A stretch of DNA of 39,046 nt from a virus (taxonomy: Duplodnaviria > Heunggongvirae > Uroviricota > Caudoviricetes), in the IMG/VR virus record IMGVR_UViG_2579778894_000027. One strand, given 5' to 3'. The notes under the pieces are model-generated. The model searched no databases. It saw nothing but the letters and a program-made list of their open reading frames with translations, and was not told where the DNA came from. Position numbers and translations under genes: made by a program. How positions within the stretch are numbered: position 1 is the first letter of the stretch; each line of letters starts with the position of its first letter. Below, one piece after another: positions 1,084 through 38,130 of this stretch.

Positions 1084-1190
1084 AGGTGGTTTCACGACAC
1101 TGCTTATTGCTTTGATTTTATTCTTATCTTTCCCATGGTACCCGGAGCGGGACTTGAACCCGCACAGCGCGAACGCCGAGGGATTTTAAA
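1084..1190. repeat. attL: 107-bp direct repeat identical to 37992-38098, containing a copy of the 3' end of tRNA-Leu
   Basis: Sequence aggtggtttcacgacactgc...gaacgccgagggattttaaa read identically at both positions; contains the tRNA 3' end tggtacccggagcgggacttgaacccgc on the minus strand. Confidence 0.85.
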
Positions 1191-1296: not shown

Positions 1297-2298
1297 TTAC
1301 CCTCTATTGTCAAAAGGGTTCAATTCAACAGCAGCCTCTAAATGACCTGGAGCAAAATGCGCATAACGCATAGTCATTTTTATATCGCTATGCCCCAGTA
1401 TTTTTTGCAACACAAGAATATTTCCGCCCCGCATCATAAAATGACTGGCAAACGTGTGACGTAGCACATGAGTTAATTGCCCATCAGGAAGCTCGATCTT
1501 CGCTCTCTTAATTGCAGCGTCAAAAGCCTCATAACATGGTGAAAATAGCGCTCCTCGTTTTTTAGGAAGCATAGCTTGCAATTGAGGTGAAATCGGTACA
1601 GTGCGGTTCTTCTTTCCTTTAGTTTTAACAAATGTGATTCGACCGGGCAGTACTTGAGATTGCTTTAATCCTTCTGCTTCACTCCACCGAGCACCAGTCG
1701 CAAGCCCAATACGGACAACAACCCCCAAATCTTTATTCCGTGACTCATCACACGCAATCAGAAGGCGTTCAATCTCATCTACATACAGAAACGCCAGTTC
1801 CTTTTCTTCCTCACGAAACTTGCGAATACCAGTCAGGGGGTTTTCACCAGACCACTCTCCAAGGCGCTTCAGTTCGGCAAAAACAGCATGTAGATATGAC
1901 TGCTCGCGATTAACGGTTGCTTCACTAAGTTTTTTCTTCCCCTTGGGATTCCATTCTCCTGATAGCCTTCTTTCCCGATAAGTAGCAAACATATTTTTGT
2001 CAAACTGAGAAGCAAATGGATCTCCCAGCCTGGAACAAATCGCCTCAAGTTTGACTTTGCGCTCTGCACCAGAGGACAAGGTTTTACCGTACATCTCAAA
2101 CCAACGAGCAATCAACTCAGAAAGACGAGGACCAGAACCATCTTGAAACTCGTCTCCAACTCTACTATTCATTAAACGGCGCTCATAAGAGAGCGCCTCA
2201 CTTTTTGTCGCAAACTGTTTACGAATGCGTTTTCCCGATGCCCCGTAGGGATAACATTCGCAAAGCCATTTACCTGATGGAATCTTACGAACCGACAT
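1297..2298 (-). CDS. int: Tyrosine recombinase (phage integrase)
   Basis: 333 aa; C-terminal catalytic region HVLRHTFASHFMMRGGNILVLQKILGHSDIKMTMRYAHF (R..H..R..Y signature); adjacent to att repeat. Confidence 0.9.
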   Translation of the reverse strand: MSVRKIPSGKWLCECYPYGASGKRIRKQFATKSEALSYERRLMNSRVGDEFQDGSGPRLSELIARWFEMYGKTLSSGAERKVKLEAICSRLGDPFASQFDKNMFATYRERRLSGEWNPKGKKKLSEATVNREQSYLHAVFAELKRLGEWSGENPLTGIRKFREEEKELAFLYVDEIERLLIACDESRNKDLGVVVRIGLATGARWSEAEGLKQSQVLPGRITFVKTKGKKNRTVPISPQLQAMLPKKRGALFSPCYEAFDAAIKRAKIELPDGQLTHVLRHTFASHFMMRGGNILVLQKILGHSDIKMTMRYAHFAPGHLEAAVELNPFDNRG

Positions 2299-6278: not shown

Positions 6279-7204
6279 GCACCATCAACCACCAGAAGCT
6301 ACGCGAACTGGCATTTGCCCTGCAACGAATGGCAACGCCTCAAAAATTACTGGCATTTCGCGCAATGCTCTCGCCGTCTGCTGTGCTGGCACTGCTGGAT
6401 GAGCTGGAGCACGCCAGAACCACGGCTCCTGCCATTCGCCTCACGCTCCATCATGAAATCGCTGATTTCTGCGCGACGTTGGAGGCGCCGGGCGAACCGG
6501 AAACGCCGGAAGCAATACAGCAAGAGCTGCTGCAACGCATTGACAAGGTTTTTGATTTTTTTTCTGAACCAGTAAGAAACCAGAACATGCACACACAAAA
6601 AAACCGCTTGCCATGCCTCAATCGGTCAGGTTACATTTCCGCTGCACCTCATAAAACGGGTGCCGGGATTCTCAACCCGATACAGAGCAAAGCGCATAAC
6701 CGCGCAAGCGGTTTTTTTGTGCGTACTGTATTGCCACGTCTTTTTCGCGTCAGAATTATGGCGGGGCGTACGGGGCCGACTTCGGTCGGGCCGGATTCTT
6801 TGCTCTCCGGTGTTGAGAACCCTGTACGTCTCGCCACCCCGAGATTCTCAACTCTGGATGGTGAGTTATTTCTATCACCGAGCAAAGAGGCCACACCATG
6901 GCAGACCGCAAACAGCACCGCGCTATCGCGGAGCGTCGTCACATCCAGACTGAAATCAACCGCAGACTTTCCCGCGCATCACGCGTCGCGCAAATCATGC
7001 ACATCAATATGCTGCATGAGCGCAGCCACGCACTATCAAACATTTATTCCGCCTCTGTTTTCAGCTATCTGGCGGATGATCTGCACGAGCTTCAACAGCT
7101 CATCCAGCAGCAAAACAAACTCCATTAATTCCTGTTCCGGGCCTTTCCTGCACCTTGCGGCGGGAGGCCTTCGCACATCTGTAACAAGAGGATTGCCGCA
7201 ATGA
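6275..7204 (+). CDS. Early-region ORF; only the N-terminal ~100 aa look protein-like, probable frameshifted/over-extended ORF
   Basis: Frame is open to 7204 but composition after about 6575 is Ser/Cys-rich junk and overlaps a better ORF (6898-7128); a T8 tract at 6556-6563 sits where +/-1 nt would give a stop within 1-5 codons. Confidence 0.3.
   Translation: MSTINHQKLRELAFALQRMATPQKLLAFRAMLSPSAVLALLDELEHARTTAPAIRLTLHHEIADFCATLEAPGEPETPEAIQQELLQRIDKVFDFFSEPVRNQNMHTQKNRLPCLNRSGYISAAPHKTGAGILNPIQSKAHNRASGFFVRTVLPRLFRVRIMAGRTGPTSVGPDSLLSGVENPVRLATPRFSTLDGELFLSPSKEATPWQTANSTALSRSVVTSRLKSTADFPAHHASRKSCTSICCMSAATHYQTFIPPLFSAIWRMICTSFNSSSSSKTNSINSCSGPFLHLAAGGLRTSVTRGLPQ
6898..7128 (+). CDS. Hypothetical small early protein
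   Basis: 76 aa, charged/helical composition, SD agagg upstream of ATG. Confidence 0.45.
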   Translation: MADRKQHRAIAERRHIQTEINRRLSRASRVAQIMHINMLHERSHALSNIYSASVFSYLADDLHELQQLIQQQNKLH

Positions 7205-7572: not shown

Positions 7573-10395
7573 ATGACGGCAGAGTATATCAGGGACTGGC
7601 AACAACCGCGCCACGCAGTGGGGCGTGAAGGAACGGAGATCCCCGCTCCTGAATCCGCGCTTTCCTCCTGGCTGGATGCCTACCGGGTAGAGAACGAACG
7701 CCGCCAGGAAATGGCTGATGCGGCGTTCTCCGCCACGCCGCTGGGCAACCTGATTAATAAAAGCCTGGACGCACAGGAAAAACAGGACAAAACCATCACA
7801 CTGGCAGGAGACGCCAGAAAACAGGCACGTGGCGCGGTGGATGAAGCCATGGCCTCACTGCGCCTGCTGCCGTCCTATCTGCGCGATCCGCTTATTCGCC
7901 ACCTCTCCTTCCTGCGCAAAAAACAGGAAGCCGATCGCCGGAAAGGCAAAAAGAGCTGGCAGGCTGAACGCTACGCGTGCGGAACCCTGCGCAAAATATT
8001 CGAACGTCTGGACCGCACCGACCACCGCTGGCTGACACCGGGTTATCGCTCCCTTGCCGGACGCGAACGCCTGGATGATTTGCTTTACCTGCCGCAGCTC
8101 AACAAACACCAGATACAGACGCTGGCCACCATGACGGCGGCGATGTTCAGCAGCACCTTCGAAAAACTCTGCGATGGCTTTGGCGCGACTGATGGCGAGC
8201 TGACCATGGATGTAACGCTGAAGGCTTATCAGATGCTGGCCCGCATGGCGTTACACCTGCACGCCATGCCTCCACATTATGACGCACTGACAACAGACAA
8301 AGACCGGAGGAACGAACCGGACACGGAGCTGCTGCCGGGCGCAATCCTTCGCCTGACCTGTGCGGAATGGTGGAAACGCAAACTGTGGCTGTTACGTTGT
8401 GAGTGGCGGGAAGAACAACTCCGCGCCGCCTGTCTGGTTTCCAGAAAAACATCCCCCTATCTGAGCCAGGACGCGTTAAGCGAGTTTCGCGCACAGCGCG
8501 AGAAAACGCGCGATTTCCTGAAAAGTTTCATGCTGGAAAATGAAGACGGGTTCACGATTGATCTCGAGACGGTGTATTACGCGGGAGTAAGTAACCCGGT
8601 TCACCGTAAGGCAGAAATGATGGCCACCATGAAGGGACTGGAACTTCTGGCCGAAGCCCGTGGCGACAGAGCGGTGTTTCTGACCGTCACCTGCCCGTCA
8701 AAATACCACGCAACAACGGAGAACGGTCATCCGAACCCCAAATGGAACGGGGCCACCATGCGCGACTCCAGCGATTACCTGGTTAACACGTTTTTTGCGG
8801 CGGTCCGCAAAAAACTGAACCGCGACGGCCTGCGCTGGTATGGCATCCGCACGGTGGAGCCTCACCATGACGGCACTGTGCACTGGCATATGATGGTCTT
8901 TGCACATCCGGACGAGATTGAAACCATCGTGTCCCACGTCTGCGATATTGCCATTCAGGAGGACCGCCACGAGCTGGGCGATGACATAACTCCGCGTTTT
9001 AAGGCGGAGTATGTCGACGGCTCAAAAGGCACACCAACCAGCTACATCGCCACCTACATCGGAAAGAACCTGGACAGCCGCGCCGTGGATGGCATCGACC
9101 CGAAAACGGGCAAGCCACGCGTTGACCACGAAACAGGTAAATCAATGGCCGAGAGCGTGGAGCGCGCCATCGGCTGGGCGCGCCTTCACCGGGTCCGTCA
9201 GTTCCAGTTCTTTGGCATCCCCTCCCGTCAGGTGTGGCGTGAACTGCGCCGCCTTGCCAGCCAGATGGCACGCAATCCGGAAGGCCCGCAACGGCTGAAA
9301 GATGATGCAATGGATGCGGTACTCGCTGCCGCCGATGCCGGGTGTTTTGCCACCTACATTGAAAAACAGGGTGGCGTGCTTGTTCCACGCAAGGACTACC
9401 TGATTCGCACCGCCTACGACCTCGCAGATGAGCTGAACGATTACGGCGAACAGAGCGTACAGATTTACGGGATCTGGTCACCACTCATCGGGGAATCCTC
9501 CCGTGTGTGCACGTATCCGGATAACTGGAAGCTGGTAAGACGTAAACCAGAACCGGAAGACAACGCCCACGAAAATGGTTTTGACCTTCAGGGCGGCCCT
9601 GCCGCCCCTTGGACTCGTGGCAATAACTGTCCCCGTGTACAGGAAACAGGCAACAACGGGACAGAACAGCCGGAAGAACGGCCAGCACCGTGGCCGCAGC
9701 TTCCTGACGGCGTTGAAGTAAATGAATGGATGCGCTCACTGAAACGGCACGAACGCCGGGCGCTGATGCGTTCGCTTCGTGACAAACAGGCAAAAAACAG
9801 CAGCGATGAAATGCAGAACTGGACACAGAGCCGCAAACAGCAGCGGCCTTTGCCTGATAACCACGAGTTACTCGCTAAAGAATGGCGGGAGTCTGCTGAA
9901 TCTCTCGGCCTGCATATCGGTGAACAACAGATGCAGCACCTGTTACGGGGCGGCAGTCTGTACGTTGACGGCAGCATCATTGCACCGCAGGGATTTGAAA
10001 TTGTACGCAAACCGGATACCCGCCCGGACAGCCGAATCACGCAGCTCTGGCAGCGTCTGAGCCGTAATCATGGCGTAAGCAGCACGGAGATCCGCCATAA
10101 CCCGGTCGCCAGCTATCTGGCACAGCTGGGGGCATCAGACCCTGAAGCCGCCGCACGCCTGGCATCCACACTTCAGCAGGACCAGAACACCATGAAAACA
10201 CCCGTTACCGTGCTTTCTGACATGCTGCGCGCCATCCGCGACGCAGAGCACGCACAGAGAATCAGTGAAACCACTGAACGCGCCAGCCGCAAAGCAGACC
10301 TGCTGCGGGGTGGCCTGACCAGTGGAAACAAAAAACAGACAGAAACGGGACTCACGAATCCCGTAAATGAGCAAAAAACGCGCAGCGATATATGA
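7573..10395 (+). CDS. Replication initiation endonuclease (P2 gpA-like rolling-circle Rep) with long C-terminal extension
   Basis: 940 aa; HUH-type motif GTVHWHMMVFAH and double-tyrosine motif TPTSYIATYIGKN; position between early genes and packaging genes as in P2. Confidence 0.85.
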   Translation: MTAEYIRDWQQPRHAVGREGTEIPAPESALSSWLDAYRVENERRQEMADAAFSATPLGNLINKSLDAQEKQDKTITLAGDARKQARGAVDEAMASLRLLPSYLRDPLIRHLSFLRKKQEADRRKGKKSWQAERYACGTLRKIFERLDRTDHRWLTPGYRSLAGRERLDDLLYLPQLNKHQIQTLATMTAAMFSSTFEKLCDGFGATDGELTMDVTLKAYQMLARMALHLHAMPPHYDALTTDKDRRNEPDTELLPGAILRLTCAEWWKRKLWLLRCEWREEQLRAACLVSRKTSPYLSQDALSEFRAQREKTRDFLKSFMLENEDGFTIDLETVYYAGVSNPVHRKAEMMATMKGLELLAEARGDRAVFLTVTCPSKYHATTENGHPNPKWNGATMRDSSDYLVNTFFAAVRKKLNRDGLRWYGIRTVEPHHDGTVHWHMMVFAHPDEIETIVSHVCDIAIQEDRHELGDDITPRFKAEYVDGSKGTPTSYIATYIGKNLDSRAVDGIDPKTGKPRVDHETGKSMAESVERAIGWARLHRVRQFQFFGIPSRQVWRELRRLASQMARNPEGPQRLKDDAMDAVLAAADAGCFATYIEKQGGVLVPRKDYLIRTAYDLADELNDYGEQSVQIYGIWSPLIGESSRVCTYPDNWKLVRRKPEPEDNAHENGFDLQGGPAAPWTRGNNCPRVQETGNNGTEQPEERPAPWPQLPDGVEVNEWMRSLKRHERRALMRSLRDKQAKNSSDEMQNWTQSRKQQRPLPDNHELLAKEWRESAESLGLHIGEQQMQHLLRGGSLYVDGSIIAPQGFEIVRKPDTRPDSRITQLWQRLSRNHGVSSTEIRHNPVASYLAQLGASDPEAAARLASTLQQDQNTMKTPVTVLSDMLRAIRDAEHAQRISETTERASRKADLLRGGLTSGNKKQTETGLTNPVNEQKTRSDI

Positions 10396-10471
10396 AGCGC
10401 GCACAAAACAGGCAAAAACGGGATTTCAGAATCCCGTAAACGATTAATTAATCAACATAAGGAAAACCGAC

Positions 10472-11431
10472 ATGAAAATTTACATCGACGACGGCTCCAC
10501 CAACATCAAGCTGGCATGGACTGAGAACGGCGAACGCCGCAACGCCATCAGCCCGAACAGCTTCAAGTCGGAATGGTCTGCGCCGTTCGGTGGCTCGCAG
10601 CCTGCTAACTACATGCTTGATGGCGTGCGCTATGGTTTTGATCCGGTCAGCGATCGCTTTGTCCAGACGACCGACACGCAATACCAGTACAGCGATGTGA
10701 ATGTCATTGCCATTCATCACGCGCTGGTCAAATCAGACATCACGCCACAGGAAGTGGATGTGGTTGTTACCCTGCCACTGAGCGAATATTTCGACACAAA
10801 CGCACAGCCGGACATGGCCAACATCAACCGCAAAAAAGCGAACGTCATGCGCCCGGTGGAGTACCAGAACGGCGAAGCATTCACTATCCGTAACGTACGG
10901 GTTATGCCTGAATCCATTCCGGCTGGCTTTAAAGCACTGGCTGACATGAGTCCGTTTGAATCCCTGCTGATTGTGGATTTGGGCGGAACCACGCTGGATG
11001 TGGCAAAGGTTCAGGGGCAACTGGCAGGTATCAGCCAGGTGTTTTGCGATCCACACGTAGGCGTTTCTCTTATGGCCGATGCCGTACTGTCGGTGATGGC
11101 CACTAACGGTATGCGCACCAGTCACCACATCGCCAATACCATTATCGAACATCGCCATAATGAAGCCTGGCTGCGCCAGCACATCCACAATGACGCGCAT
11201 TACGCCAGCCTGATGGCGGTTATTCGTGAAAAGGAAGAAACACTGAAACAACGCGTGATCCGCGCGCTGGCGGTTTTTTCGGGTTACGGGCGGGTGATGG
11301 TTGTCGGTGGCGGGGCGGAGATTGTGGCACCCGCTATCCGCGAAGCCTGCGGAGTTAATGCGACTTTCATCGCGGACGGGGTGCCACAGTTTGCTCTGGT
11401 TAATGGGCTGTACGCAATGGACAAGGAGTAA
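10472..11431 (+). CDS. parM: ParM/StbA-like actin-type segregation ATPase
   Basis: N-terminus MKIYIDDGSTNIKLAW...ISPNSFK...YQYSDVNVIAIHHAL...IVDLGGTTLD closely parallels plasmid R1 ParM (VFIDDGSTNIKLQW...SPNSF...WQYSDVNVVAVHHAL) as recalled. Confidence 0.85.
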   Translation: MKIYIDDGSTNIKLAWTENGERRNAISPNSFKSEWSAPFGGSQPANYMLDGVRYGFDPVSDRFVQTTDTQYQYSDVNVIAIHHALVKSDITPQEVDVVVTLPLSEYFDTNAQPDMANINRKKANVMRPVEYQNGEAFTIRNVRVMPESIPAGFKALADMSPFESLLIVDLGGTTLDVAKVQGQLAGISQVFCDPHVGVSLMADAVLSVMATNGMRTSHHIANTIIEHRHNEAWLRQHIHNDAHYASLMAVIREKEETLKQRVIRALAVFSGYGRVMVVGGGAEIVAPAIREACGVNATFIADGVPQFALVNGLYAMDKE

Positions 11432-11435
11432 ACCA

Positions 11436-11747
11436 ATGACGACACCAACCAGACGGATAAGTTTCTATCTGAAGCCCGCCGCCGTCAAGAACGAAGGAGA
11501 AGCATGCGCCTGGCTGGACAGCCTTACACCAGAAGCCCGCAAAAGCGGCCAACGCGTGGCTTTTCTGGCCGGGCTGGCACTTCTGAAGACGAATCCGGCA
11601 GAGGCTTACCGACTGGCCGCATGGGCTGATGATGAGATGTTACCTGTGACACAAATCAGCTCAAAAAAGTTTGAAGCACAGTCTGCACCAGTGGCTAAGA
11701 TAACCAGCCAGATGGCTGGGAATATCCGGGCGTTATTTCCTGAGTAA
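11436..11747 (+). CDS. parR: ParR/StbB-like centromere-binding adaptor
   Basis: 103 aa; RRISFYLKPAAVKNEGEACAWLDSLTPEARKSGQRVAFLAGLALLKTNP...RALFPE parallels R1 ParR; AAGGAG SD 7 nt upstream; immediately downstream of parM. Confidence 0.75.
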   Translation: MTTPTRRISFYLKPAAVKNEGEACAWLDSLTPEARKSGQRVAFLAGLALLKTNPAEAYRLAAWADDEMLPVTQISSKKFEAQSAPVAKITSQMAGNIRALFPE

Positions 11748-11875
11748 AAGCATCTGCGCGAAAAATGCTCACGTTTATAGAGACAGTATCATTCCATTTG
11801 GCACACTTACTTCAATAATCGATCTGTTAAACAAATAGATTGTCTATTATCTATCGATTAAAACGATCAATTATC

Positions 11876-11903
11876 TTGACAGTAATGTGCCTTTTTGTAA
11901 GAT
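11876..11903 (+). promoter_or_regulatory. Sigma70-like promoter (ttgaca-N16-taagat)
   Basis: Perfect -35 ttgaca at 11876-11881 and -10-like taagat at 11898-11903; flanked by imperfect inverted repeats caattatcttgac / gacaagataattg. Confidence 0.45.
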
Positions 11904-11909
11904 CGTTCG

Positions 11910-12096
11910 CATTGTGAGCGACAAGATAATTGCGCGGCATTGTCCATGCAAAACGCCCCAATAGCAGCAACTATTGGGGCGTAAAACTCGGTCGGACTCA
12001 CTTAACCTGATATGCGTGCCTTCCGAAGTAAATCAAAATGTGCGTCGTATATTTTATTGCTTACACGCACCTCTGTAAAGGCACGCATATTTTTCC
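11910..12096 (+). ncRNA. Candidate structured leader or small RNA ending in an intrinsic terminator
   Basis: Downstream of promoter: GC-rich hairpin cgccccaatag-cagcaa-ctattggggcg (11954-11981), then 13-bp perfect inverted repeat atatgcgtgcctt (12010-12022) / aaggcacgcatat (12078-12090) followed by TTTTT; 3' end abuts SD of the 89-aa ORF. Confidence 0.3.
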
Positions 12097-12111
12097 TATG
12101 AGGTAAATAAA

Positions 12112-12381
12112 GTGCGGGCTAAAACAGGTATTTGCAAGAACCCTCATCGTTATAATCCAACATTTCTGTCTCTCCCTGAATATCAAGGACAAGAAGGTCG
12201 GCACAAATGCGCTGCCTGTGCTTTTGAGCTAGGCATAAAAGATGCGCTTGAAGGACGCGCTATGGCTCAGAATGATTTAGTTTTAGCTAACATTCCGTTT
12301 AGCCAGGCTGGAACTGTAAGGCACAGAGATGCCTATGAAGCATATGTTCGTGGTTGGCGATTAATAAACAGCAACAATTGA
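12112..12381 (+). CDS. Hypothetical 89-aa protein (GTG start), accessory
   Basis: ORF with SD gagg 8 nt upstream of GTG; followed by terminator; contains CKNPH...HKCAACAFE Cys/His cluster. Confidence 0.45.
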   Translation: MRAKTGICKNPHRYNPTFLSLPEYQGQEGRHKCAACAFELGIKDALEGRAMAQNDLVLANIPFSQAGTVRHRDAYEAYVRGWRLINSNN

Positions 12382-12391
12382 TACTTTTGAA

Positions 12392-12417
12392 GCGCCGATA
12401 AGGCGCTTTTTTTGTTT
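12392..12417 (+). terminator. Rho-independent terminator
   Basis: gcgcc-gataa-ggcgc hairpin followed by TTTTTTT. Confidence 0.6.
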
Positions 12418-12867
12418 GCACGATAGTGCACAAGTTTGCACAATTTTTTTGAACGACTTTTTGTACTTCCGGCCCGCGTGGTGGCTGGATCCGTCAAGGA
12501 TCCGTACGTGCACAAAAAAACGCGTTTTTTCTGCGCGCAGGTGACGGGGGAACAGCCCGCGTTTCAGGGGGTAAATAGCATTCCCTGAACGATGTCGCAG
12601 AGATAGAACAGAATGGCTGTATTTCTCACGCTGAGCGTGAAAAAGACGTGAGGGCTTTTGATTTGATGGGGTGAAAGGTAAGGCCGTCAAAATCGCACTG
12701 AGACGGCGAGAACATGCAGTCAACGCGGTGGGATTGCGTAAGAGTCTGACTGTCGATGATGGCAATCAGCAGGAAAGCATCGTGAAATTATCTGACTGAT
12801 ACAGGAGCTGGAGAGTCGGGGCATAAATTTTTTATGCCCCGGCGAAGCAGCAGACAAGCGAAGCGCG

Positions 12868-26419: not shown

Positions 26420-26997
26420 TGACATTCAGAATGAGTGAACAATCACGGACCATAAAAATTTATAATCTACTGACCGGAACCAATGAGTTTATTGGTGAAG
26501 GTGATGCATACATTCCACCTCATACAGGTCTGCCTGCAAACAGTACCGATATTGCCCCGCCAGATATTCCGGCTGGCTTCGTGGCCGTTTTCAACAGTGA
26601 TGAGGCATCGTGGCATCTCGTTGAAGACCATCGGGGTAAAACGGTTTATGACGTGGCATCAGGGGACTCGTTATTTATTTCTGAACTCGGTCCATTACCG
26701 GAAAATGTTACCTGGTTGTCGCCGTATGGAGAGTATCAGAAGTGGAACGGCACATCCTGGGTGAAAGATGCAGAAGCAGAAAAACTGTTTCGGATAAGGG
26801 AGGCGGAAGAAACAAAAAACAGCCTGATGCAGGTAGCCAGCGAGCATATTGCGCCACTTCAGGATGCCGTAGATTTGGATATTGCAACGGAGGAAGAGGC
26901 ATCGTTACTGGCTGCATGGAAGACATACCGGGTATTGTTGAATCGTGTTAATACAGCGGTAGCAGCGGATGTTGAGTGGCCAGTCGCCCCACAATAA
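26419..26997 (+). CDS. Tail fibre assembly chaperone G
   Basis: 192 aa; ATGA-coupled to H. Confidence 0.75.
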
Positions 26998-34612: not shown

Positions 34613-35026
34613 GCAAATTAGATGTATTGACTCAAACCAGAACTGACACACTCACAGCACAGTGCCAGACCCAATCTGGCAGCCCGCTTTGTGCCTAGAG
34701 CAGGTGTTGCTTATGTAACAGTTAATCCACGGATAGTGGTCATGAATGCTGGTTGAAGTTGTATTGCCATGAATGGTCAATTAGGGACTCACTTATTATC
34801 GCGTGCTCACCATTGATGGGTAAGATCATGCATTTCGGCTACTGTACTTCGCGAATCCTCCACACACAGGCAACACCTGATTTAAGAACAGAGGGAGATG
34901 ATGACGCAAGGAAGATTTATTATCGTGCATGTGGCAGATGATCTTTTAGCTGCCGGAGTGATAAATTACACCTATTTTCGATAAGTGTTTTTGTTATAGA
35001 ACATTAATTTCGTGGGAAACAATAAA

Positions 35027-36151
35027 GTGAAATTAGGAAGAAATGATAAGTGCTGGTGTAATTCAGGACTTAAGTATAAAAAGTGCCATCTTGGTCGAGA
35101 CCGTGAAACTCCGGTATCCAAAGCCGAGGCACTGAAATTTTCAAAGTCTCTCTCGCAGAGAAAGGCATGTTATGCGCCAGCATCCATGCACGAAGATTGT
35201 GATAAACGCATCGTTCAGGCGCATACGATATCTAAGAGCAGTAGCCTTAAGGCGATCGCCGACTCCAGCAATCACGTCATGGGGGTGATAATGAACTTAG
35301 CAAGCCTGATGAGAAACAACGGAAAATGGCTTCCCGAGAAGATCGGTATCAATCAGGCATCCACTTTTACAGGATTTTGTGCAGTTCATGACAGAATCTT
35401 GTTTTCATGCCTAGAGAACGAAAAATTTACAGGCACGGACGAGCAGTGCTTTGCCTTAATGTTTCGTTCATTGTCTAAAGAAATTTACGCCAAAGAAGGG
35501 GGAGTGCTATCTTCCGATTTTGCTAAAAATGCCGATAAAGGAAAGCTACAAGTTGAACAGTATTATATTCAGAAATTAATCGACCAGCACCAAAGTGGCT
35601 TAAATGCAGCAATAATTGAATTAAATCATCTTAAAACTAGCCTCGACCGCATCCTACTTAGCAGGCAATTTTCAGAAATTGAAAGTGTTATCTTCACTTT
35701 TGCAGAGCCTTTACCAATTGTAGTTTCGTCAATTCTTTCACCGGAGAGGGATTTCGATGGGACCAAAATTCAGGATTTGAGCGATCTTACAGTGTCGGCG
35801 GAACAAGTATGTTTCAATGCTTTTTCCTGCGGAGGTAAGGGATATGTAGTGTTCAGTTGGCTGAGAACTTCAACAATTATCAGACGTTTTATACGGACAC
35901 TAATTAAGATCCCGGCTAACAGGATGTTCAATACCCTTCTGTATTTTTTCTTCACAAAGGCCGAAAATACATATTCATCCCCTGAGTGGTGGGACAGGCT
36001 CAGTGATAAACAGCGAGAGAATATCGGCAACATGATTATGTCAGGGGTTGAATTTTTTGGCAGACCTACATCACAGGTTGATCATTCCGTTGATTATAAC
36101 GCCGCTGCACTTGAAGAGATAACATGCAGCAACAACGAAATTTGCAGCTGA
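35027..36151 (+). CDS. SEC-C-motif (zinc-binding) protein of unknown function; AT-rich accessory gene
   Basis: N-terminal GRNDKCWCNSGLKYKKCH matches SEC-C metal-binding motif (C-x-C-x8-C-H); remainder unrecognised; strongly AT-rich; start could be GTG 35012 or 35027. Confidence 0.6.
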   Translation: MKLGRNDKCWCNSGLKYKKCHLGRDRETPVSKAEALKFSKSLSQRKACYAPASMHEDCDKRIVQAHTISKSSSLKAIADSSNHVMGVIMNLASLMRNNGKWLPEKIGINQASTFTGFCAVHDRILFSCLENEKFTGTDEQCFALMFRSLSKEIYAKEGGVLSSDFAKNADKGKLQVEQYYIQKLIDQHQSGLNAAIIELNHLKTSLDRILLSRQFSEIESVIFTFAEPLPIVVSSILSPERDFDGTKIQDLSDLTVSAEQVCFNAFSCGGKGYVVFSWLRTSTIIRRFIRTLIKIPANRMFNTLLYFFFTKAENTYSSPEWWDRLSDKQRENIGNMIMSGVEFFGRPTSQVDHSVDYNAAALEEITCSNNEICS

Positions 36152-36440
36152 ATGTTTACATGCTGTTAGAAAAAGCGGGCTGAACAATCATTTCGGGATT
36201 GTAACAGATAAGATGGCACTGCCCGCTTGCTTCCCGATATGTACCTCAGCCAATAAACTTATGTAAGCAACCGATTTCCATTTATGCGGAGGTTATCAAA
36301 GTTGTTGGAGTTGCGAACTTCCGCTCTTCGCACAAAGCGTACCGCTAGGTTTGATTGTATTCTGGCTGCGCAAACTGTCAGTTGGAGTCTGAGCTATTAC
36401 AACTTAGAATAGCGGCAGCACCACGTTAAGGGAGGTCGCT

Positions 36441-36701
36441 ATGTTCCGTTGTCCGCTTTGTGGCGCATCTGCCCGAATCCGCACCAGTCGTCCGGAAAAC
36501 GATTCAAACACTGTGCGGCAAAAGTATTACCAGTGTAACAACCTGGAATGCGGCGTATGCTTCTCAACACTGGAAGCTTTCCATAAATTCACATCAAAAC
36601 ACGCCTCCGGCGTTCACTCTTCGGAAGGTATCCCGTGGCATGAGCTACCAGCTTCACACAGGGGAAACAATCAGATGAGTTTGCCTTTACCTCAGAATTA
36701 A
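36441..36701 (+). CDS. ogr: Ogr/Delta-family zinc-finger late-gene transcriptional activator
   Basis: MFRCPLCGASARIRTSR...YYQCNNLECGVCFSTLEAF parallels P2 Ogr (MFHCPLCQHAAHARTSR...YHQCQNVNCSATF). Confidence 0.9.
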   Translation: MFRCPLCGASARIRTSRPENDSNTVRQKYYQCNNLECGVCFSTLEAFHKFTSKHASGVHSSEGIPWHELPASHRGNNQMSLPLPQN

Positions 36702-36892
36702 CAGGCAGAATTGCCGGAGTAACAAAAAAACGATAGATTACCCGCGGGTGCCTTTCGGCTGATGGTCGGAGGGAATACCCGAAGGCCGGATGTGGAAAGG
36801 CCCCGGAAAACATTTCTGTTTAACCGAGGCCCTAACATATCTACCTTAAGCAAGTGATAGGTTAGCGCCTCTCCAACAAAGGAGCAAGCGCT

Positions 36893-37033
36893 ATGTCGCA
36901 AAAATCGCTTACGGCCATCACGTTCTGCGTGACGGTAATCCTCATCATCTGGATGCTACACGGTTCGCTGTGTGAAATACGGATGAGCTTCTGGGGAGCG
37001 GAGTTTGCGGCGTTCTTACAGTGTAAGCAGTAA
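36893..37033 (+). CDS. Hok/Gef-family type I toxin (46 aa)
   Basis: MSQKSLTAITFCVTVILIIWMLHGSLCEIRMSFWGAEFAAFLQCKQ: single TM helix plus hallmark SLCEIR and AAFL.CK motifs of Hok proteins; AAGGAG SD; below ORF-track size cut-off. Confidence 0.75.
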   Translation: MSQKSLTAITFCVTVILIIWMLHGSLCEIRMSFWGAEFAAFLQCKQ

Positions 37034-37121
37034 GGAAACCGCGACGGGGGAGCAATCCCCCGTCAATCGGTTGCTAAGGTTGGCTGAAGTGGCACCCTAT
37101 CTCACAGACATGAACAACAAA

Positions 37122-37153
37122 CCCGCAGCGTAAGAACTGCGGGTTTTCTTTTT
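37122..37153 (+). terminator. Rho-independent terminator downstream of hok-like gene
   Basis: cccgcag-cgtaagaa-ctgcggg followed by ttttcttttt. Confidence 0.7.
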
Positions 37154-37221
37154 GGAACTATCACTAGCTAGTGTACCGTTAACGGCACATAATGCTCGCA
37201 CAACAAACCTGTTAAAAGAGA

Positions 37222-37503
37222 TTACTCAGCATTCTCCTGCTTCCATTGCCGGATCATTTCATCGGTAACATCACCCTCATAACATACCACGTCATACCCT
37301 CCATTACGGCTATATGCACTGCGTCCACCACATCTACTACCATTCCTTGCATGATTATAAGGACACGCACAATTGCCTGGATAAGATTCAATGGATTCTT
37401 TAATTATTTCTTTTTTGATCTGAGCATCAGACTTTCCTGTTGCTGCATATCCACTAAAAGATACTAAACAAAGGCAGATTGCCATTAATAAACCACATCG
37501 CAT
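37222..37503 (-). CDS. Small secreted Cys-rich protein of unknown function
   Basis: Predicted signal peptide MRCGLLMAICLCLVSFSGYAATG; 5 Cys in mature part (NCACPYN...RCGG...VVCYEG); start uncertain (37503 or 37485). Confidence 0.5.
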   Translation of the reverse strand: MRCGLLMAICLCLVSFSGYAATGKSDAQIKKEIIKESIESYPGNCACPYNHARNGSRCGGRSAYSRNGGYDVVCYEGDVTDEMIRQWKQENAE

Positions 37504-37786
37504 ACCGATACACTCTATTACTAACCAATCATAGCCCACATCATAAAATCGAGATGAGGAGCACAATACCTTTAACAAGAAGGTGTCATAACGATAATAT
37601 GTCGTGCAATTCATCAAAAAAAAGATCTATATCAAAGAGATAGAACTCTTATCAGTGCTTCAGACATCGGCATTCGAGGCAGCAGAAAAACAGTAAATCT
37701 GACGAATTTGCCTTTTCCCAAGATGTTGTCAGATTAAAAAGATAGATTAGCGCAGGTACCTCTGTTGGGGGATTGCAGGAGGAAAA

Positions 37787-37891
37787 ATGAAGTCGAGTGG
37801 AAAAATCCCAGAAAAATTTTTGTTTAACAGAGGTCCTGGTTCACTATACGAAATACGGAGGAGCTGCAGAAGAATTCTGCTTCATCCTTAG
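37787..37891 (+). pseudogene. Deletion-derived hok-like remnant
   Basis: DNA ggttcactatacgaaatacggaggagc is homologous to hok ggttcgctgtgtgaaatacggatgagc (SLYEIRRS vs SLCEIRMS); upstream tttgtttaacagaggtcct matches hok leader ttctgtttaaccgaggccct; TM-coding part missing. Confidence 0.5.
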
Positions 37892-37974
37892 AGTTTAAAC
37901 AGCACGTGCACTACCACTGTTTCTGCATATCGCCACACCATCGCCACTCTACCGCCATTGCACAAAATACAAAT

Positions 37975-38000
37975 ACGAAAAAACCACCCGAAGGTGGTTT
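37975..38000 (-). terminator. Rho-independent terminator of the tRNA operon
   Basis: Minus-strand hairpin aaaccacc-uucg-ggugguuu followed by U-run (plus strand tacgaaaaaaccacccgaaggtggttt). Confidence 0.7.
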
Positions 38001-38098
38001 CACGACACTGCTTATTGCTTTGATTTTATTCTTATCTTTCCCATGGTACCCGGAGCGGGACTTGAACCCGCACAGCGCGAACGCCGAGGGATTTTAAA
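37992..38098. repeat. attR: 107-bp direct repeat identical to 1084-1190, overlapping the intact tRNA-Leu 3' end
   Basis: Identical sequence by eye to left copy; spans part of terminator hairpin and the 3' 55 nt of the tRNA. Confidence 0.85.
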
Positions 38099-38130
38099 TC
38101 CCTTGTGTCTACCGATTCCACCATCCGGGC
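38044..38130 (-). tRNA. leuZ: tRNA-Leu (anticodon UAA)
   Basis: Minus-strand sequence GCCCGGATGGTGGAATCGGTAGACACAAGGGATTTAAAATCCC...GGGTTCAAGTCCCGCTCCGGGTACCA, 87 nt with long variable arm and encoded CCA. Confidence 0.9.

Follow-up and report, generated by a model that had tools for sequence, protein, structure and literature searches.

A predicted R1-family ParMRC partition cassette bordering the accessory hotspot of a P88-like, P2-family prophage of Escherichia coli

The type II partition systems ParMRC of plasmid R1 and par2 (StbAB) of plasmid pB171 are arranged in the order repeats, parM, parR. The same order is found in the DNA analysed here, a stretch of 39,046 nucleotides (IMG/VR virus record IMGVR_UViG_2579778894_000027; the whole stretch is referred to as the window), in which a parMR gene pair is located in a prophage, between its replication gene A and its portal gene. 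In contrast to R1 and pB171, this cassette resides in an integrating P2-family phage and not in a plasmid, and the phage ParMs make robust subclades of their own. Parallels to a partition function on integrated elements have been described. The ParMRC-like system srpMRC stabilises the excised integrative and conjugative element (ICE) R391 and lowers its loss, acting beside a toxin-antitoxin stabiliser (Carraro et al. 2015, PMC4489591); its srpC site consists of just four 13-bp repeats. This system of the SXT/R391 elements can be compared with the phage cassette as a functional analogue, being an actin-type partition system on a normally integrated element. However, SrpM and SrpR are distant from ParM and ParR, no homology to ParR being recognisable in SrpR, whereas the proteins of the phage clearly belong to the R1 family. 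Moreover, the element that carries srpMRC is conjugative and not a virus, and its function has been demonstrated, whereas that of the phage cassette is predicted.

The second functional analogue is AlpAC/alpS of the Corynebacterium glutamicum prophage CGP3, an integrated prophage which likewise encodes an actin-like filament former (AlpC) and a DNA-binding adaptor (AlpA). Both proteins are induced early, and efficient replication of the phage DNA depends on them; AlpA binds sites 5' of its own operon and ties circular CGP3 DNA to the AlpC filaments (Donovan et al. 2015, PMC4446434). The two systems differ in the family of the actin-like protein, the host phylum and the phage type, and the known phenotype of AlpAC concerns the efficiency of replication after induction. 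The phage-plasmid D6 also carries a ParM homologue, which is 47% identical to that of the window. In this 91-kb P1-like phage, it is annotated as a plasmid stability protein of the StbA type. The prophages of P1-like phages are plasmids, whereas the phage in the window is integrated at a tRNA gene.

The prophage extends over approximately 37 kb of the window, and both its ends are formed by an exact 107-bp direct repeat. With its P2-type gene set, comprising Cox and gene A for replication as well as genes for the portal, terminase, capsid and tail, it is a P88-like (Xuanwuvirus) member of the P2 family of temperate E. coli phages. The copy in the window is integrated, with intact attachment (att) repeats and an integrase gene. 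This agrees with an earlier, sequence-only reading of the window that had placed a ParM/ParR module in a P2-like integrating prophage. The portal and terminase genes lie 3' of parMR on the opposite strand.

The parM product matches the Pfam family StbA_N (E = 9.7e-81) and the ParM C-terminal domain (E = 3e-68), both from end to end, and structures of R1 ParM match its residues 1-316 (1mwk, E = 7.7e-92). It is 46% identical to R1 ParM over the full length and has the same nucleotide-binding motifs. The phosphate-binding and catalytic motifs IDDGSTN, MPESIPAG, DLGGTTLD and GGGAE are the same as those of R1 in the pairwise alignment, and the segments that had been quoted from the translation alone (IDDGSTNIKL, SPNSF, YQYSDVNV..HHAL and DLGGTTLD) indeed fall on identical R1 residues. 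Among ten phage-borne ParMs, the ATPase motifs DDGST, PES, DLGGTT and GGGAE are invariant.

The parR gene begins after a gap of 4 nt behind the parM stop codon. Its product matches the Pfam family PF10784 (Plasmid_stab_B, E = 2.4e-23). No match was obtained with the single ParR sequence against the Protein Data Bank and a profile was required: that made from ten ParR homologues matches the solved structure of pB171 ParR/StbB (2JD3, E = 4.2e-17). Similarly to pB171 StbB, the phage ParR has kept the N-terminal DNA-reading strand and the C-terminal LF tail of the StbB/ParR family. The strand RRISFYLKP and the tail N-x3-LF are common to phage and plasmid ParRs, and the N-x3-LF motif, which aligns with the C-terminus of the pB171 protein, is invariant in both. 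A longer listed open reading frame (ORF) at 11301-11747, with a TTG start and overlapping parM, was rejected as parR; RefSeq calls the 103-aa version with the ATG start. No significant NCBIfam equivalog was obtained for ParM or ParR.

The profile search for ParM/StbA and ParR has thus matched both families, and the assignment of the two ORFs behind the replication gene to ParM and ParR of the R1 family, proposed in the sequence-only reading, is confirmed by Pfam, the R1 structures and pB171 2JD3. The locus has the ParM domains, the nucleotide-binding motifs and a ParR/StbB gene directly after parM that characterise a type II system. On these grounds, parMR is predicted to be an intact type II (ParMRC, R1-family) DNA-segregation cassette, which is stably retained in P88-like P2-family phages. 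It is an ordinary-looking R1-family partition cassette at an unusual yet already documented location.

The retention of the cassette was followed in 84 related loci drawn from IMG/VR and from phage records. The IMG/VR part comprises the best 80 loci, all of them 98-100% relatives, which provide population depth and, among these best 80, no further lineages. No fast turnover among close relatives was observed, the cassette being kept in 84/84 loci and the full 319-aa ParM being present in every one. The ratio of nonsynonymous to synonymous substitution rates (dN/dS) of parM, determined against five to seven relatives, was 0.05-0.15, and that of gene A was 0.09-0.14; parM is under purifying selection. 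For parR, dN/dS was about 0.4 and dS was about threefold that of parM. The higher dS indicates that parR occurs as mosaic alleles, in which the first ~18 and the last ~8 residues are shared and the middle part is strongly different. Even the divergent allele has the N-terminal strand TRRISFYLKP and the C-terminal NIxxLFPE.

The interval between genes A and Q, in which the cassette lies, is the published tin/old hotspot (Rousset et al. 2022, PMC9122126), as had been recognised in the sequence-only reading, which also noted that anti-phage systems have been placed there. The cassette does not behave like cargo of this site. The window is homologous to P88, PhiR44_2, P884B11, PhiSM and Chuche from gene A across parM and parR up to the parR stop codon, position 11747, where the homology ends. 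The 60 nt located 3' of parR exist in 34 distinct versions among the 84 loci, and related phages hold HicAB, a KAP NTPase or other genes in the slot after parR. PADLOC returned no match for ParM, ParR or the 89-aa ORF that occupies this slot in the window. Because of the homology break at the parR stop, the lack of a PADLOC match and the same position of the cassette in divergent phages, the cargo interpretation was rejected: the parMR cassette sits at the conserved edge of the hotspot and is not its cargo.

ParMs that are 53-62% identical to that of the window are encoded in P2-like prophages of Hafnia, Plesiomonas, Serratia and Enterobacter, each with a ParR gene between the Phage_GPA gene and the portal gene. 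These relatives came from a protein search combined with contig look-ups; a contig scan with the single ParM returned near-identical copies and plasmid-type relatives of about 50% identity only. The relatives of up to about 52% identity that were looked up have plasmid surroundings, with Rep3, ParA and genes of the plasmid leading region. The identity of the Hafnia, Plesiomonas, Serratia and Enterobacter phages to the window is 29-48% for the portal protein, 39-46% for the large terminase and 33-57% for gpA. ParM is therefore conserved at least as much as the phage core. In a bootstrapped neighbour-joining tree, the ParMs of E. coli, Hafnia and Plesiomonas grouped together in 100/100 replicates and those of Serratia and Enterobacter also in 100/100, whereas the union of the two groups was recovered in 40/100. 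Either one or two ancient acquisitions are therefore possible. A single clade of phage ParMs, read from a midpoint-rooted neighbour-joining tree, was dropped in view of the 40/100 bootstraps, the two subgroups alone being robust. In line with the tree, the Serratia/Enterobacter group has another repeat arrangement upstream of parM.

The parM gene starts 76 bp after gene A on the same strand, and the candidate centromere covers the 3' end of gene A and the gap between A and parM (Table 1). The dyad repeats that had been noted at 10327-10443 are real: a 42-nt direct repeat occurs twice, each copy containing an 18-20-bp palindrome (AACGGGAyTnnnGAATCCCGTAAA), and the copies are 73 bp apart. The pair of YGGG-N10-CCCR motifs is centred at -117/-44 relative to the parM ATG in E. 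coli, at -120/-47 in Hafnia and at -123/-51 in Plesiomonas, the spacing being 73, 73 and 72 bp, respectively. Shuffling the upstream region of each of the three lineages 20000 times never produced such a spaced dyad pair. One further YGGG-N10-CCCR is present in the window, at 37045. Since about two chance matches are expected per 39 kb, lone matches are meaningless and only the spaced conserved pair counts. This conserved pair constitutes a repeated cis site upstream of parM.

Column variability, counted on a MAFFT alignment of 50 distinct E. coli-type upstream sequences, showed that GGGA/TCCC is nearly invariant and the central bases are variable. Between the lineages, the outer GGG/CCC alone is conserved, which therefore suggests a protein-binding site and not an RNA or terminator hairpin. 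The reading of the dyads as minus-strand terminators, based on a hairpin score in E. coli, was rejected because Hafnia and Plesiomonas keep the outer GGG/CCC only and because there is no converging minus-strand gene. In Hafnia, an extra ORF of 167 aa is inserted between gene A and parM and the dyads stay beside parM. They are therefore part of the par module and not of gene A or its origin. As to gene A itself, gpA has 940 aa, of which the Phage_GPA domain covers residues 179-503 only; no family was matched by the C-terminal extension of about 440 residues, in whose last codons dyad 1 is located.

In all three lineages (E. coli, Hafnia and Plesiomonas), dyad 2 has a TTAATCAA box on its 3' side, which may belong to a promoter. 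The promoter scan 5' of parM detected no strong σ70 site and manual readings of -35 and -10 elements were weak. No terminator was predicted on the plus strand between gene A and parM, and the AAAC motifs between the dyads showed no regular phasing. Taken together, the two-dyad element is likely a phage-type parC to which ParR would bind. It differs from the parC of the plasmid relatives, in which arrays of TTCTC-type iterons flank a TTGACA/TATAAT promoter: the arrays of ~11-bp direct iterons flanking the par promoter that are typical of R1 were not found upstream of the phage parM, where there are two dyads only.

Table 1 Features of the parMR locus, the adjoining hotspot and the prophage ends (positions refer to the window)
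Feature	Position	Strand	Basis or remark
Candidate parC-like centromere	10329-10443		Two copies of 42-nt direct repeat in A-rich stretch
Dyad 1, AACGGGACTCACGAATCCCGTAAA	10344-10367		Centre 117 bp 5' of parM ATG; inside last codons of gene A
Dyad 2, AACGGGATTTCAGAATCCCGTAAA	10417-10440		Centre 44 bp 5' of parM ATG; followed by conserved TTAATCAA box
parM, 319-aa actin-fold ATPase of R1 ParM/StbA family	10472-11431	+	Pfam and structure matches
parR, 103-aa ParR/StbB adaptor, predicted ribbon-helix-helix	11436-11747	+	PF10784 and ParR profile
Gene A, replication endonuclease	7573-10395	+	Pfam Phage_GPA, E = 1.7e-129
Variable hotspot between parR and portal gene	11748-12867		Homology break at 11747
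Promoter-like site of hotspot, TTGACA-16-TAAGAT	11876-11903		Promoter scan
89-aa ORF in hotspot	12112-12381		phrog_3941, function unknown
Terminator of 89-aa ORF	12389-12409		Terminator scan
attL copy of 107-bp repeat	1084-1190		Exact repeat match
Tyrosine integrase gene	1297-2298	-	Adjoins attL
attR copy of 107-bp repeat	37992-38098		Exact repeat match; overlaps tRNA-Leu(taa)
tRNA-Leu(taa)	38044-38130	-	

The 1.6-kb region was found at an identity of at least 90% in 1304 of the 5426 complete E. coli genomes. The copies are chromosomal in 1450 of 1452 cases, the other 2 being on plasmids, and many genomes have 2-3 copies, with a maximum of three. In PLSDB, 7 of 72,556 plasmids match, mostly large replicons. 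The region is also present in 14 deposited phage records, including P88, which was obtained via chemical induction, the spontaneously active PhiSM, PhiR44_2 and Chuche. The genes have been named in RefSeq (plasmid segregation protein ParM and plasmid partitioning/stability family protein) and PHROGs families exist for both proteins. In the PhiSM paper, the gene is merely listed as a 'fitness' factor.

The available text of Pfeifer et al. (2021, PMC7969092) counts P88 among putative phage-plasmids and ascribes to it 'plasmid-like replication genes', which are not named there. Rousset et al. (2022, PMC9122126), who analysed this gpA-gpQ hotspot, proposed a possible episomal state for about one in four P2-like phages of E. 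coli. The presence of parMR and its interpretation as an episome function are thus already known from databases and literature, and the idea of a phage-plasmid hybrid lifestyle, raised in the sequence-only reading, is not original, having been published for P88 and for about a quarter of the E. coli P2-like phages. In no paper searched did we find the position at the hotspot edge, the retention in divergent P2-family phages, the ParM subclades or the two-dyad candidate centromere.

A whole P88-like genome has been deposited as a circular 'plasmid' of 34,461 bp from E. coli Z1323PEC0009 (NZ_CP148288.1). It is closed at the junction of the int and ogr sides, i.e. in the attP form, and carries parMR, a methyltransferase gene with Com, and hok. 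The window contains, at the position equivalent to that of the hok gene annotated in this record, an ORF of 46 aa of the Hok/Gef family (36893-37033, plus strand; PF01848, E = 3.7e-07, which exceeds the curated cut-off), placed between ogr (36441-36701) and attR. No match to the Sok RNA reached the Rfam gathering score.

The most likely interpretation, to which we give about an even chance, is that the cassette segregates the extrachromosomal circular form of the phage genome and thus serves its inheritance. ParR dimers would bind the two YGGG-N10-CCCR dyads 5' of parM, the conserved C-terminal tail of ParR would capture the ends of ATP-ParM filaments, and filament growth would drive two copies of the phage genome apart. 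These steps would take place on the free circle, either after infection and before integration or after excision. Both daughter cells would get a copy, and lysogeny would be established or kept and not diluted out. A role in the extrachromosomal form is proposed because it is only as a free circle that the phage could be moved as a whole by ParR/parC, and the canonical mechanism is assumed because all the needed ParMRC components are present and constrained, i.e. from family membership. Inheritance is favoured because most P2-like phages replicate without the cassette, because the layout looks autoregulated as in plasmid par operons, and because the same phage has a Hok/Gef-family gene near attR, a plasmid-type stability function. 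Such a role would parallel that of srpMRC for excised ICE R391. The argument in the sequence-only reading that an integrated phage needs no partitioning is contradicted by srpMRC (PMC4489591) and by AlpAC of CGP3 (PMC4446434).

Several points weigh against a role in inheritance. No functional study of, or experiment on, phage-borne parMR was found in the searched literature. Replication of the P2 type by gpA is of the rolling-circle type and coupled to lytic development, and the number of circles in a surviving, dividing cell is uncertain. No convincing upstream promoter was predicted, and the cassette may therefore be expressed in lysogens, only from the early lytic operon with gene A, or in both ways. 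The two dyads are far below the ten iterons of R1 parC and a filament-capping ParR-DNA complex is therefore no more than putative. Finally, the layout of the repeats differs in the Serratia/Enterobacter group, whose ParMs join the E. coli type in 40/100 bootstraps.

The closeness of parM to gene A on the same strand, with no plus-strand terminator between them and no strong promoter of its own, would also suit a cassette that is co-transcribed with gene A in the early operon, following induction or infection, and positions or spreads the replicating monomeric circles during the lytic phase, aiding replication or packaging rather than inheritance, in the manner of AlpAC. We consider this a serious rival, although of rather low probability. 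It would agree with the early induction of AlpC and AlpA in CGP3 and their requirement for efficient phage DNA replication, as well as with the occurrence of the cassette in phages obtained as particles by isolation or induction (P88, PhiSM, PhiR44_2 and Chuche). However, the cassette is lacking in about three quarters of the P2-like phages of E. coli, P2 among them, which replicate nonetheless; it is therefore not needed for P2-type replication. Moreover, the TTAATCAA box with a dyad at the promoter position suggests autoregulation, which would be superfluous for a purely lytic function. That P88-like phages persist in the long term either integrated or as low-copy plasmids, with parMRC as the plasmid partition system, seems unlikely to us. 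Such a lifestyle has been proposed for P88 (PMC7969092) and, in PMC9122126, for about one in four P2-like phages, and both the circular attP-form record of 34,461 bp and the hok-family gene would be in accordance with it. Nevertheless, E. coli copies on chromosomes (1450/1452) and the 7/72,556 matching plasmids in PLSDB speak against it, as do the integrase and the intact att repeats of the copy in the window, which is integrated. In addition, no plasmid-type replication initiator was seen in the phage, the sole replication protein found being the rolling-circle gpA, and NZ_CP148288.1 could represent excised or replicating phage DNA from an induced culture.

We attach very little probability to a defence or exclusion function, in which a repurposed cytoskeletal module would act against superinfecting phages or competing ParMR plasmids. 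The gpA-gpQ interval is home to many anti-phage systems; however, ParM and ParR had no PADLOC match, and the cassette is conserved and the variable cargo begins after parR. Incompatibility-based exclusion of R1-type plasmids, put forward in the sequence-only reading, is also unlikely, the upstream repeats being unlike the TTCTC iterons and up to three copies of the region coexisting in one genome. Just as improbable is an action on the host chromosome while the phage is integrated, by which the prophage locus would be moved or the local segregation altered, or a cassette that is a neutral hitch-hiker. Nearly all copies are chromosomal and parMR could be expressed in lysogens, but no precedent for ParMRC acting on a chromosome came to light, and a neutral relic is contradicted by a parM dN/dS near 0.1, by the 84/84 intact loci and by the retention in very divergent phages.

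If the cassette is active in segregation of the free phage genome, a very common group of E. coli prophages would have an actively partitioned extrachromosomal stage. This would bear on the efficiency of lysogenisation, on the rarity of prophage loss and on the boundary between 'integrated prophage' and 'phage-plasmid'. For a ParR of the R1 family, a centromere of two dyads would be unusually small, and it would be informative on the capping of ParM filaments by ParR-DNA complexes. A broader proposal, to which we assign a low probability, is that P88-like and related P2-family phages, which occur in about a quarter of E. coli genomes, represent a large unrecognised class, being either facultative phage-plasmids or phages whose pre-integration or excised stage is actively partitioned, with a phage-specific ParMRC, a minimal two-dyad centromere and a hok-type killer. 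If this were true, lysogeny would include a regulated plasmid-like phase.

Some other features of the prophage and its surroundings were also noted. ORFs of the IS66 family (TnpB_IS66 and an ORF for a transposase with a helix-turn-helix motif) occupy positions 1-998 on the minus strand and stop about 85 bp short of the left att repeat; the insertion sequence (IS) element thus adjoins the left end of the prophage. In the early region 5' of gene A, two RNAs on the plus strand exceeded the Rfam gathering score, the Hfq-binding RNA isrK (6644-6718) and the C4 antisense RNA (6754-6841). The IS009 RNA family was matched with 192 bits at 26762-26960 on the plus strand, within the region of the tail-fibre and tail-fibre-assembly genes. 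Between gene D and attR, positions 34700-37990 form an island of low GC content (0.41-0.49), which may be a second cargo locus. Its ORFs include those for a 379-aa protein (35012-36151) and a 131-aa ORF (37222-37617). In the 379-aa protein, an N-terminal SEC-C motif alone was recognised, and the PADLOC matches were confined to this motif.

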